From Gammaproteobacteria bacterium (GTDB lineage: Bacteria > Pseudomonadota > Gammaproteobacteria > Ga0077536): a stretch of 64,000 bases of DNA. The DNA is taken from positions 19,770 through 83,769 of the forward strand of contig JACQWY010000037.1 in assembly GCA_016209015.1 (NCBI GenBank), in the 5' to 3' direction. Shown here one piece after another: positions 2,662 through 53,725 of the stretch (position 1 is the first letter of the stretch; each line of letters begins with the position of its first letter). The position numbers and the translations under genes are program-made. The notes under the pieces were generated by a model. It saw only the letters and a program-made list of their open reading frames with translations, did no database searches and had not been told where the DNA came from.

Positions 2662-3837
2662 ATGAGAATCGGGATCGTCGGCGCCGGGGCGATGGGCGCG
2701 TTCGTCGCCAGGGAAATCGTGCGCAGTGCGCCCGGCACGGAGCTCGCGATCGTGGATGCCGACGGCGAACGTGCCGCGCGGCTCGCCGCGCTCTGCGCGC
2801 AGCCCACGAGCGCGGTGCAGGTCTGCGACGCCGCGGACGTCGGCGCCCTGGCGGGCGCTTTGCGCGGCTGCGCCGTGGTCGCGAATGCCGCGCAGTACGA
2901 GATCAATCTCGAAGTCATGCAGGCCGCGCTGCGCGCCGGTGCGCACTACCTCGACCTCGGCGGCATGTTCCACATGACACGGCGCCAGCTCGCGCTCGCG
3001 CCCGAGTTCGAACGCGCCGGCCTCACGGCCATACTCGGGATCGGCGCTGCGCCCGGTCTCAGCAACGTGCTCGCGCGGCATGCCTGCCAGGCGCTCGAGC
3101 GCGTCGAATCGATCGCCGCGAGCTTCGCCGCCGCGGCGCCCGACGCGCCGCCGACCGAAGTCTTCGCGCCGCCCTATTCGATCCGCACCATCATGCAGGA
3201 ATTCTGCGAGGACTCGATGCAGTTCCTGGAGGGTGAAATCACCGCGCAGCCGCCGCTCGCGGGTCGGCGCACGATCGAATTTCCCGCGCCGATCGGGGCC
3301 GTGGACTGCGTCTACACACTCCATTCGGAGCCGGCCACGCTGCCGCTCACGTTCCGCGACAAGGGCGTGCGCGAAGTGACCTGGCGTCTCGGTCTGCCGC
3401 CGGCGCTCGAAGCGCAGATCGCGGCGTTCGCCGCCGCCGGCCTCGGCCGCAGCCGCCCGCTCGCCGTCGCCGGAACCGCGATCGCTCCCGTCGAATTCCT
3501 GGCCGCCTGCATCGACGACAATGCCCGCGGCCAGCGTCGCGACGGCGTCCGTTTCTCGGAGTTCGGCTGCGTGCGCGTCGAAGCGCGGGGCGTGATCGGC
3601 GAACGGGCCACCGAGGTCGCGATCGACTGCCTGTACCGCGACGAAGGCGCACCGCCCGAAGTCGCCGGCGTCATGACCGGCACGCCCGCGGCGATCGCGG
3701 CGCTGATGCTCGCGCGCGGCGAAGCGACGCGCCCCGGCGCTCACGGCGCCGAGGCGGTCGTCCCGAGCGAGTCGATGATCCGCGAGCTCAGGCAGCGCGC
3801 CTTCAGCATCGTGCGCACGGTGCGCACGGCGCTGTGA
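2662..3837 (+). CDS. Saccharopine dehydrogenase-like NAD(P)-dependent oxidoreductase
   Basis: N-terminal GAGAMG Rossmann motif, HYLDLGG, GIGAAPGLSN, HSEPATLP; GGGGAG RBS. Confidence 0.85.
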   Translation: MRIGIVGAGAMGAFVAREIVRSAPGTELAIVDADGERAARLAALCAQPTSAVQVCDAADVGALAGALRGCAVVANAAQYEINLEVMQAALRAGAHYLDLGGMFHMTRRQLALAPEFERAGLTAILGIGAAPGLSNVLARHACQALERVESIAASFAAAAPDAPPTEVFAPPYSIRTIMQEFCEDSMQFLEGEITAQPPLAGRRTIEFPAPIGAVDCVYTLHSEPATLPLTFRDKGVREVTWRLGLPPALEAQIAAFAAAGLGRSRPLAVAGTAIAPVEFLAACIDDNARGQRRDGVRFSEFGCVRVEARGVIGERATEVAIDCLYRDEGAPPEVAGVMTGTPAAIAALMLARGEATRPGAHGAEAVVPSESMIRELRQRAFSIVRTVRTAL

Positions 3838-3842
3838 GCGGC

Positions 3843-4470
3843 GGAGCTGATGCCGACGTTCGCGGCGAGCTGTGCGAGGTCTGCTTGGGGCCTGGAAGCG
3901 GCATGCTCACGCGGATCTCGTAGGTTGCCGTGAAAGAGGTGCTGCCTCTGGAGCCGGAGATCCATCAGAGCCGTCGTCCCGGCGAAGGGACCCTCCCGGC
4001 GGAGGCCGGGACCGGGACCCAGTCGGTCACCCTCGGCACCGCGAGCGAACGCCGGGGATTTCCAGAGCGTGTCCGGTCATCGCAACACCCCGAGGTTCCA
4101 CCACGACGAGGCTGTGGTGCGCTCGCCTCTTTCATCACTCCGGGCGACGGCATGTATTCATGACCGATGGGCTGACGAAGGAAGCCCAACAACAGGCGCA
4201 CGAAGAACACCGGCTTGAAAGAAGTAACGCCGTCTCTGGCTACCGATGCATCGCCGCGTCAGTGAACCTGAAACGTTGGGCTTCCTTCGTCAACCCAACC
4301 TGCGCTTGCTAAGGAGGCGCATCGAACGCGGAGGCTCAAGGCCAGTGTTCGAAAGTCCGTTATCGGAGCCGATGCCGACGTTCGCGGCGAGCAGCGCGAT
4401 GTCTGGTTGCGGCCAGGAAGCGACTTCGTATGCGGATTTTGTAGGTTGGGCTGACGAAGGAAGCCCAACG
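3843..4470. repeat. REP cluster (family 1, GTAGGTTGGGCTGACGAAGGAAGCCCAAC) with a duplicated ~80-bp leader
   Basis: Intact REP at 4441-4469, inverted REP at 4275-4303, split REP at 3920-3927 plus 4168-4190; 3843-3927 and 4365-4448 are imperfect direct repeats. Confidence 0.88.
3928..4167. mobile_element. Non-autonomous 240-bp element (MITE-like) inserted into a REP
   Basis: Separates GTAGGTTG from TGGGCTGACGAAGGAAGCCCAAC with TG repeated at both junctions; second copy at 53381-53545. Confidence 0.75.
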
Positions 4471-4472
4471 CG

Positions 4473-5000
4473 TCACTCACCGTAACTCGGCAGATCTCTG
4501 GCCGCATCGACGCACCAATCGTCTGGAAGCACCCCGCGCGCAACGTACCGATGAAACGTGGAGTAGGGCCACTCGCTGGGTCGTTGGGAGTAGCCATGCT
4601 TGACGGGATTAAAATGGATGTAGTCCACGTGCCGTTCAAGATCGGCATCGTCCCGAATTTGGTGCTCCCAATAGCGCCTCTGCCAAACGCCGCGCTCGCG
4701 CTTGGCGTTGCGCGAATCGGCAATCGGCTCGCCGCTCGCGAGCGCGCGGGAGAAGCAGGATTTGATTAACGACCATCGAACGGGATAGTCCGCGTCATCC
4801 GGCGGGAGCCTCCAAACGGAATGTAGATGATCCGGTAGAACTACCAAGGCAACGATGTCGAAGGGATGATTGGCTTTAACCTTGCGTACCGCTTCGCGCA
4901 AGTTGCCAATGTGGCGAATGAGCGTATCTAGTCGCCGGTCGGCGAGGTTCACGGTGAAGAAGTAAGTCCCGCCCGGGAATACCGAACGTCGATAACGCAT
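4473..5000 (-). mobile_element. REP-associated tyrosine transposase (RAYT/TnpA-REP, IS200/IS605 superfamily HUH Y1)
   Basis: GGTYFFTVNL, LPDHLH (HUH), WQRRYWEHQIRD, YIHFNPVKHG, WPYSTF; flanked by inverted GTAG-REPs. Confidence 0.95.
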
Positions 5001-5070
5001 GCAACGGTCCTTGTGATTTTCGCGTTGGGCTTCCTGCACCAACGAACTAACTTCGCGACACGCCCCGAGA

Positions 5071-5099
5071 GTTGGGCTTCCTTCGTCAGCCCAACCTAC
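5071..5099 (-). repeat. REP family 1, inverted copy upstream of RAYT
   Basis: GTTGGGCTTCCTTCGTCAGCCCAACCTAC is the exact reverse complement of 4441-4469. Confidence 0.92.
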
Positions 5100-5429
5100 G
5101 CTTGCTGAGACCGGGCGAATCACGATGCTTTCCTATGGCGCCAAAGTTTTAAAGAGTCTTCCGTATTGACCAAGCTGCACCCAGGCGCGCTCCTAAATGA
5201 CGAAATGAGTTTCCGGCACTTAGGACGAAATATTCAACGGTCCGCCCCGCAATGTCTCTGTCTCTTGTGGGTCGAAACCGACCTTTTCAAGACTGGCATC
5301 ATAGGTCCGTTTACCGGCCGCCTGCGAACCCAGAATACTCTTAATGCGGGCGTCGCCGCCGACCCTGCCGGTTCTCGATCACGAAGTTGCCGCGAAGACG
5401 ACTACCTTATGAGGCACCACGGCGCACGC

Positions 5430-6059
5430 TCAGGGCGCACCTCCCGACGTACGGCTGCCAGTCGCTTTCGAGCGAAGTGCATTCAGGTAGTCGACGATGT
5501 CCGAGCCGTAAACCCAGACCGGGTCCGCATAGGTCGGAATGCGCATTACAAGGCCGTGCGGTCGAATTGAAACCCCTGGCCCGGACGGTAGCTCGATGAA
5601 CTGCGACGGGATTTCGATCCAGTCTTCCCAGGATTGCGATGACATCAGCATCGCACCCGCAAATCCTTGCATGATTGAGTAAACGGTCCACTTCGAGTGG
5701 CACTTCTCGTACCTCTGGCGTTCAAGTGACCTGGAGATGGAATTGGTGGAAGCAAGTTCGCGGTATTCGCGTTCGGGCTTGGTAAGAAATAAGAGGTAGC
5801 GTCCTCCGAGTTCCAGACCGTCGATTCGCCCGAAATTTACCTCTGTTCCAGCGTCTCCCTTGAACGACTCTTCGATCTTTCCTTTGTATTGCCATCCGCA
5901 TTCGAGGTCCGTCGGATCGATTGGCTCACCGTTCATTACTTGTACAGAGACCACGAGGTCGGCTTGCTCGAATAACCGCTCCATGGGCACACGATCGAGC
6001 CTTGTTCCGTGCGCACAGGTGGCATATACCAGCAGCGCGACTAGGCACGTACGACGCAT
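5430..6059 (-). CDS. Hypothetical exported protein (209 aa)
   Basis: Signal-peptide-like N-terminus, AAGGAGAG RBS, lower GC than the core genes. Confidence 0.75.
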   Translation of the reverse strand: MRRTCLVALLVYATCAHGTRLDRVPMERLFEQADLVVSVQVMNGEPIDPTDLECGWQYKGKIEESFKGDAGTEVNFGRIDGLELGGRYLLFLTKPEREYRELASTNSISRSLERQRYEKCHSKWTVYSIMQGFAGAMLMSSQSWEDWIEIPSQFIELPSGPGVSIRPHGLVMRIPTYADPVWVYGSDIVDYLNALRSKATGSRTSGGAP

Positions 6060-52969: not shown

Positions 52970-53380
52970 GACTGGACACACCTCGCGAACTCGAATGAAC
53001 GGGAAAGCACTGCCGGCCGCGCGCGGCGGCAGCGGAACGGAAGCGGGCAAGGATCGCGGACCCGGATCGCCCCGACCGGCGACCCGTCTTCGCGGGGCCG
53101 TCCGTGGCGTGCGCAACCGCGGCTGAGTATATCAACCTGCCCTCGGGGCGCGAGGCTCCGCGTGGTCGCGAGGATAGTGTTGCATGGCAGCATCCGGGAC
53201 GCGTGCGTCGAACCCAGACGCAGGTCGGATCGGCGCCGGCGTAATCCGACGGATTCTTCGCGTCCGTCCCCGCCGTGCAATCCGACGCAGGAACCCGGCG
53301 AAGAATACGTACGGTCCGCTGCGCCGACCGTCCCTGCGGATCCGGCGGCCTGCTACGGGCTCGAAATCGATTCTTCTCCA

Positions 53381-53545
53381 TCGGTCATGAAGACATGCCG
53401 TCGCCCGGAGTGATGAAAGAGGCGAGCGCACCACAGCCTCGTCGTCCCGGCGAAGGGACCCTCCCGGCCTCCGCCGGGAGGGTCCCTTCGCCGGGACGAC
53501 GGCTCTGAAGGATCTCCGGCTCCAGGGGCAGCACTTCTTTCACGG
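53381..53545. mobile_element. Second copy (165 bp, inverted) of the MITE-like element at 3928-4167
   Basis: Both ends near-identical to copy 1; CA on both flanks; perfect 29-bp internal stem at 53440-53501. Confidence 0.75.
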
Positions 53546-53725
53546 CAACCTGCGGGATCGTTCGACGCAGTGTGCTCCGGCTGATTCCTGTCACCCTCGT
53601 GCAAGCGAGGGCGACAGGGTGACTTGCGCGCCCCGGTGCGCGGGTCGACGGCCCGCGCGCTTCGCGGAAGAACCGTAGAATTCCGGTCCCGAATCCGACC
53701 CACGAGAATCTGCGAGGACCCACCC

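Follow-up and report, generated by a model that had tools for sequence, protein, structure and literature searches.

The window, a 64,000-nt stretch of DNA (C13:19770-83769) from a 5.7-Mb assembly of 65 contigs with 67% G+C, carries a RAYT-like gene on its minus strand at 4473-5123. The product matches Y1_Tnp at residues 74-170 with an E value of 4.6e-5 (24 bits, cut-off 23). The longest reading frame crosses a REP copy that lies upstream of the gene on the minus strand (5071-5099), which probably places the true start near 5000. An intact REP, GTAGGTTGGGCTGACGAAGGAAGCCCAAC, is found on the plus strand at 4441-4469, and a third copy with two mismatches occupies the minus strand at 4275-4303. 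Searching the window with the REP pattern at up to three mismatches returned these three matches, against an expectation of 0 from 100 shuffles. The copies at 4441-4469 and 5071-5099 are short palindromes with a conserved 5' head, and they flank the Y1_Tnp reading frame on both sides, in agreement with a preliminary description of this DNA, which had assigned the REPs to the adjacent RAYT. Genome-wide there are 72 REP copies at up to six mismatches, a figure that counts in the right halves of occupied REPs. Their commonest form has C at position 7 and G at position 27 (GTCG...CGAC), and CG is the right-hand dinucleotide in three of six tails of this form. The T/A form (GTTG...CAAC), the source of the TG dinucleotide, is in the minority, yet it is the form that is mostly occupied. 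The genome contains five Y1_Tnp matches, and the four outside the window (C42:52199, C39:223612, C20:64605 and C13:95169) are RAYT or IS200-like.

A further REP, upstream of the intact one, is split. Its left part on the plus strand (3920-3927) consists of the head GTAGGT (3920-3925) and the dinucleotide TG (3926-3927), and is identical to the first eight nucleotides of the intact REP at 4441. There follows a 240-bp insert, CCGTGAAAGAGG...TTCATGACCGA (3928-4167, plus strand), and then a second TG (4168-4169) with the remainder of the REP and its hairpin GGCTGACGAAGGAAGCCCAAC (4170-4190). The insertion point thus falls within the 5' arm of the REP stem, after GTAGGT-TG and before GGCTGACG..., and duplication is limited to the 2-nt core TG present on both sides. 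The roughly 80 bp before the split REP (3840-3919) align with those before the intact REP at a mean column identity of 79%, which makes the intact REP a paralogous empty site. The insert has no terminal inverted repeats; its one inverted repeat, TGAAAGAGG/CCTCTTTCA, is real and subterminal. In all of these respects, the split by a 240-bp insert between two TGs, the resemblance of the upstream flanks and the restriction of inverted repeats to an internal pair, the locus is as the preliminary description had it. A related strain, represented by a 6850-nt contig from groundwater metagenome run X3, follows window positions 3300-3837 with two differences, has 195 other letters instead of 3838-4308, and continues at 4309-4422.

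A second copy of the element, 165 bp long, lies on the minus strand at 53381-53545 and is bordered by CA (TG in the orientation of the element) at 53379-53380 and 53546-53547. Its flanks read GCAGGT-TG and TG-GAGAAG, so that the site is REP-like on the head side only. This had been described as the same element inverted; the position and the TG on both sides were upheld, while sameness was not, as the lengths (165 and 240 bp) and the middles differ. Copies 1 and 2 share their first 84 nt (96.4% identity) and last 65 nt (98.5%) around a divergent middle, which in copy 2 is a long palindrome of about 30 uninterrupted pairs, a feature absent from the preliminary description. A single strand of copy 2 is predicted to fold at -61.3 kcal/mol (z = -8.55), and none of 200 shuffles folds as well. 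One palindrome arm, the right one, is deleted in copy 1, and both arms are present in a 282-bp copy at C61:22155-22436. The middle of these elements, which we call family A, is a separate palindromic repeat with the foot GTCGTCCCGGCG, occupying 53421-53480 in copy 2 and 3972-4112 (end coordinate approximate) in copy 1. The same repeat occurs on its own across the genome, where we counted 440 matches to the foot and 47 inverted pairs, mostly of about 153 bp.

By blastn, family A has at least 12 copies or fragments of 127 to 282 bp in the genome, so the window copies are not a chance resemblance. Their arms are alike, their middles differ, and the flanks outside the REP vary from copy to copy. 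A scan for the left terminus demonstrated that its 10-12 nt, CCGTGAAAGAG, preceded by the REP head, also open a commoner 161-bp family and several rarer forms. These families have their last 40-50 nt in common as well (...CTTTCAT..GCGGGCG..TTCATGACCGN), although the palindromic repeats inside them are unrelated. The same termini bound three or more subfamilies in this genome and are all that these share.

We then tabulated the flanks with an arm profile search, which recovered 42 arms, 38 of them extending to the terminus. The dinucleotide following the terminus is TG in 29 of the 38, CG in 5 and another in 4. To the right of these arms lies a forward REP hairpin in 20 cases, an inverted REP in 3, a tandem next copy in 2 and other sequence, without a recognisable REP, in the remaining 13. 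For 24 arms the other terminus is found within 350 nt, giving complete copies of 124-317 bp (12 of them 161 bp). TG stands on both sides of 18 complete copies and the dinucleotides are unequal in the other 6; the left flank is REP-head-like in 17, and not in 7, and 10 copies have both the head and a forward hairpin. The flank counts fit the insertion site that had been proposed (TG on both sides in 18/24, head-like left flank in 17/24, forward hairpin in 20/38). Tandem copies, at C9:118094-118657, C42:65158-65364 and C33:16141, have the second copy placed exactly at the junction of the first with a single shared TG. No two of the compared copies are identical: 13 complete 161-bp copies are 81-98% identical in pairs (median 93%, maximum 98.1%), and the arms of eight family-A copies have a median pairwise identity of 94.4 and a maximum of 98.1. 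The 161-bp copies at C48:8966 and C57:252187 are without the usual left tip and are flanked by direct REP duplications of about 14-33 nt.

A fixed structured RNA or regulatory sequence beside REPs would account for the strong predicted fold and for the consistently intergenic position. Rfam, searched over window positions 3000-5500, returned no family at E values up to 1 except a chance microRNA match. The variable flanks outside the REP, the conservation of nothing but the termini around middles that vary, are deleted or are replaced, the paralogous empty site and the tandem copies all argue for a mobile element, and we consider a fixed sequence very improbable. The set can be called MITEs in a loose sense only: the copies are 124-317 bp long, lack genes and amount to 42 arms with ends that recur in an insertion sequence described below, and their termini are not inverted repeats of one another. 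Three traits are those of the IS110 family: terminal inverted repeats are lacking, only a short core is duplicated (TG flanks 18 of 24 complete copies on both sides), and insertion into repeats is sequence-specific and in one orientation.

The leading alternative at first was that the RAYT, which is an HUH Y1 enzyme, moves the element in an IS200/IS605-like way. Under this proposal the element would insert 3' of the head (after ..GGTTG) and end in a cleavage site of its own (after ..CCGATG), and TG would be shared because it belongs to both sites. The RAYT gene is only 300 bp from the element and is one of several Y1_Tnp matches in the genome. Conservation is stronger in the left flank, and at several non-REP sites only the head side is retained. 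The element folds as a long hairpin, the head forms part of long terminal inverted repeats in a diverged relative at C49:41626, and the tandem arrangement sets a second copy exactly at the right junction of the first. The termini, however, hold no REP-like hairpin of their own, and the proposal was dropped when the full-length insertion sequence was found.

The full-length form was sought by scanning metagenome contigs for the 18-nt left junction of the element, which yielded 20 loci. In three of them (L061, L059 and L054) a 406-435-aa reading frame on the opposite strand has its stop codon 81-87 nt before the junction. The products of these frames match both PF01548 DEDD_Tnp_IS110 (E = 9e-21, 8e-23 and 6e-20, respectively) and PF02371 Transposase_20 (E = 3e-18, 1e-20 and 9e-19), the domain pair of an IS110 recombinase; the window element itself is gene-less. 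L061 contains a complete insertion sequence of 1562 bp, encoding a recombinase of 406 aa between a left non-coding end of 257 nt and a right end of 84 nt. With slashes at the junctions, its flanks read GTAGGTTG/CCGTGAAAGAGG ... CTTCATGACCGT/TGGGCTGACGAAGGAAGCCCAAC, the right junction also being written GCTTCTTTCATCTTTGCGGGTGACGCACGCGCTTCATGACCGT/TGGGCTGACGAAGGAAGCCCAAC. The site is an identical REP, entered at the same position, with TG (CA in the orientation of the insertion sequence) on both sides.

Comparison of the ends was made with copy 1 reversed, since its plus-strand reading in the window is opposite to the orientation of the parent and its apparent left tip corresponds to the right end of the insertion sequence. 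The terminus CCGTGAAAGAGG at 3928-3939 (plus strand) is the reverse complement of the last 12 nt of the L061 element (12/12). At the other side, the arm at 4122-4167 (plus strand), which contains TTCATGACCGA together with CCTCTTTCA, the partner in the internal inverted repeat, aligns with left-end nucleotides 1-46 of L061, and 31 of 49 alignment columns are invariant. The 161-bp family matches L061 over left-end nucleotides 1-51 (40/51) and at the right end (11/11). CCGTGAAAGA is invariant in seven of seven aligned elements. The termini, the target, the position within it and the core of the miniature element are thus those of a full-length insertion sequence with a DEDD/IS110 recombinase, in support of the preliminary description, which had proposed a non-autonomous IS110-type element that targets the REP at a 2-nt core. 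Its suggestion that a full-length copy with a DEDD transposase might be found held for the metagenome contig; in this genome no such copy was found.

Both termini of the miniature element belong to an insertion sequence that encodes a DEDD/IS110 recombinase and no Y1 enzyme, and this argues against mobilisation by the RAYT. Recombinase relatives with 51-54% amino acid identity and other targets still have TCTTTCACGT at the element end, with TCTTTCACG kept there (in L066 and L069 the junction is TCTTTCACGT/TAA), indicating that this terminus travels with the recombinase. We now judge the RAYT proposal to be improbable. One could also suppose that the termini became alike secondarily: in L061 an IS110 element would have entered, or recombined with, an older REP-associated shell, and the shells in this genome would always have been independent of any IS110 recombinase. 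The extent of the likeness to L061, about 12 nt at the right end and about 50 nt at the left, would allow this, as would the insides of the subfamilies, which are unrelated palindromic repeats that also stand free. Three differing recombinases, however, lie at the same 81-87 nt from the same terminus, the distant relatives with another target keep TCTTTCACG at that end, and the L061 ends of 257 and 84 nt have lengths typical of the IS110 group as described for IS621 (PMC11208160). A secondary likeness therefore appears, if anything, slightly harder to defend than the action of the RAYT.

Close homologues of the recombinase are rare, occurring in only 4 of 400 genomes of the class. Among the matches listed for the L061 recombinase in plasmid records, the best has 51% identity and the other 14 have less than 40%; of these 14, 9 are annotated as IS110 family transposase. 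We also searched L061 for the guide that such a recombinase would use. Nucleotides 162-171 of its left end (ACGGCAACCT) are identical to the junction of right end and flank and are a possible guide; a match of 10 nt was reached in 79 of 5000 shuffles. Neither word matches nor scans for pairing in the left end yielded a clear pair of bridge-RNA loops, and Rfam returned nothing on L061 positions 1-1700 but chance microRNA matches far below thresholds.

A partner in this genome, in so far as the preliminary description implied one, is not supported: no cognate recombinase or bridge-RNA region was detected in the assembly. PF01548 and PF02371 gave no matches, tblastn with the three cognate recombinases gave a best E value of 0.36, and left-end nucleotides 50-257 of L061 have no homologue here. 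No recombinase reading frame accompanies those odd left-end contexts of this genome that were examined, and none of the 130 contig ends enters a cognate insertion sequence. Outside the assembly, no close homologue of the recombinase was found in 81 genomes of the order at an E value of 1e-30, and element DNA had no match in 40 relatives beyond this genome. The exact 19-nt left end gave only 15 single matches among 185,579 species genomes, in unrelated taxa, which we judge to be chance. Twelve IS110 loci, drawn from matches in 25 of 80 genomes of family relatives, share only chance words with the element, and a plasmid collection contained no match to 3.1 kb around the family-A copy on C21. Contigs of four groundwater metagenome runs likewise held neither the circle junction (...TTCATGACCG(A/T)-TG-CCGTGAAAGAG...), which the preliminary description had given as GACCGA-TG-CCGTGA, nor a clean empty site. 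The one joint in these data that goes back, by 242 nt, is the tandem copy on C9 and no circle junction.

The Pfam result needs a qualification, as 12 of the 130 contig ends enter one unassembled, multi-copy IS110-family element that is unrelated to the element under study. These ends lie outside the window, on C14, C47 (both ends), C49, C53, C8, C16, C30, C37, C42, C46 and C56. The element begins a reading frame, MKITTLGIDLAKNVFQLHGVDE, that resembles the start of a DEDD_Tnp_IS110 frame of a relative (57% over 21 residues), so for this element the Pfam null is an artefact. Its geometry is of the IS1111 type: a 14-nt inverted repeat is subterminal, with 6 nt beyond it at the left end and 3 nt at the right. 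It occupies a third type of REP (GTAGGTCCGATTAGCC...), and neither of its ends resembles those of the element under study. A stretch some 170-200 nt inward from its right end matches both halves of that REP target around a small hairpin and may be a guide RNA loop. Among the remaining contig ends, 14 (for example on C12, C17, C19, C29 and C44) share another palindromic repeat of about 130 bp, and the right ends of C24 and C55 finish in CRISPR-like repeats.

Collectively, these results make it very probable that the insert at 3928-4167 is a non-autonomous derivative of an IS110-group insertion sequence that was inserted in the same way as its parent. The derivative has retained the last 10-12 nt of the parent right end (CCGTGAAAGAGG on the plus strand of the window) and some 46-51 nt of the parent left end (...CCTCTTTCATCACTCCGGGCGACGGCATGT(A/C)TTCATGACCGA). 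It has lost the recombinase gene and the long non-coding left end, which is the site of the bridge RNA in the IS110 group, and its middle is now taken up by an unrelated palindromic repeat. A recombinase and a bridge RNA, both supplied in trans, would then excise the element as a circle and insert it, the RNA pairing with the element termini and with the REP. As no cognate partner, no identical copies among those compared, no circle junction and no clean empty site were seen, we infer this mobilisation in trans from the precedents of IS621 and ISPpu9. In the account of IS621, a bridge RNA from the left end guides the recombinase; its two loops pair with the target and with the joined ends of the circle, respectively, the 2-nt core being part of both pairings, and a donor of 22 bp is enough if the bridge RNA comes in trans (PMC11208160). 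For ISPpu9, the sRNA module alone is described as forming circles, circles also being reported with the transposase in trans, and a MITE-like companion, MITEPpu9, is found in REPs with AG at both ends (PMC12288879). Together these precedents suggest that a copy reduced to the tips could move by means of a recombinase and an RNA made elsewhere. Since a partner is not detectable and no two of the compared copies are identical, the present copies may be stranded, or else a partner exists that was not assembled or that is carried in and out by a mobile vector.

A broader reading, which we offer tentatively and think rather unlikely, joins three proposals. The shell of about 12 nt of right end and about 50 nt of left end would be a recurrent vehicle that has spread unrelated palindromic repeats into REPs, in a genome without a cognate recombinase or bridge RNA, both of which would enter from elsewhere only for a time. 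The left-end portion of about 50 nt, present in every subfamily, is much longer than the 22-bp minimal donor and may mark what natural excision requires in cis. Finally, copies at sites that match only the head side of the REP, including the second copy in the window, may be natural half-site insertions; insertions at half-matches have been reported for IS621 in vitro (PMC13626964 / bioRxiv 10.64898/2026.08.31.748434). The three subfamilies with unrelated insides and the same ends of 10-12 and about 50 nt amount to a natural deletion series for the donor site.

The finding should be of moderate interest to those who work on bridge recombinases and on REPs. Bridge (IS110) recombinases are under development as programmable genome editors, and because of this natural riders are informative about what the system needs in cis. 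The set also demonstrates that a REP family is open to large-scale colonisation, with about 40 insertions compared to 72 REP matches, a count that takes in the right halves of occupied sites. No transposase gene remains to mark the elements, and genome annotation would miss them. A Pfam search of a draft genome should be read with caution, having here reported no IS110 recombinase despite the 12 contig ends that enter one.

Several known systems resemble the elements described here. Members of the IS1111 group, such as IS4321/IS5075 and ISPa11, insert site-specifically and in one orientation into repeats, and their inverted repeats are not at the very tips. One-orientation insertion into repeats and subterminal inverted repeats are shared with the present elements; however, the long non-coding end of the L061 parent is the left one (257 versus 84 nt), which fits the layout of the IS110 group, and the ends of the IS1111-type element of this genome share nothing with those of the element under study. 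REPINs, the REP doublets mobilised by RAYTs, are likewise small, palindromic and associated with REPs and a RAYT gene, and they have the host REP family in common with the present elements. They differ in that the termini here derive from an IS110 element, for which the REP serves as target rather than as mobile unit. IS621, as described (PMC11208160), is similar in its REP target, 2-nt core, lack of terminal inverted repeats and long non-coding left end, while its core is CT instead of TG/CA and it is autonomous.

The closest precedent is MITEPpu9, the ssr9 module associated with ISPpu9 in Pseudomonas putida KT2440 (NAR 2025; PMC12288879), which we liken to the present elements by its description. 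Both are gene-less elements whose boundaries resemble the two ends of an IS110-group insertion sequence; both occupy a fixed position in the REP with one dinucleotide at both ends (AG there, TG here) and occur in tandem copies; and for both, action of the transposase of the insertion sequence in trans is proposed. MITEPpu9, as that report describes it, carries an sRNA gene and is present in 8 copies beside 7 copies of its insertion sequence, whereas the genome studied here has at least three subfamilies with palindromic insides and 42 arms, and no cognate insertion sequence detectable in the assembly. A word search of the literature found MITEPpu9 as the sole IS110-derived miniature element, and others may exist. 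The set thus departs from the precedent in copy number, in its tip-sharing subfamilies and in having no detectable partner, and the element in the window is a further, unusually numerous example of the kind first described in 2025 with MITEPpu9.
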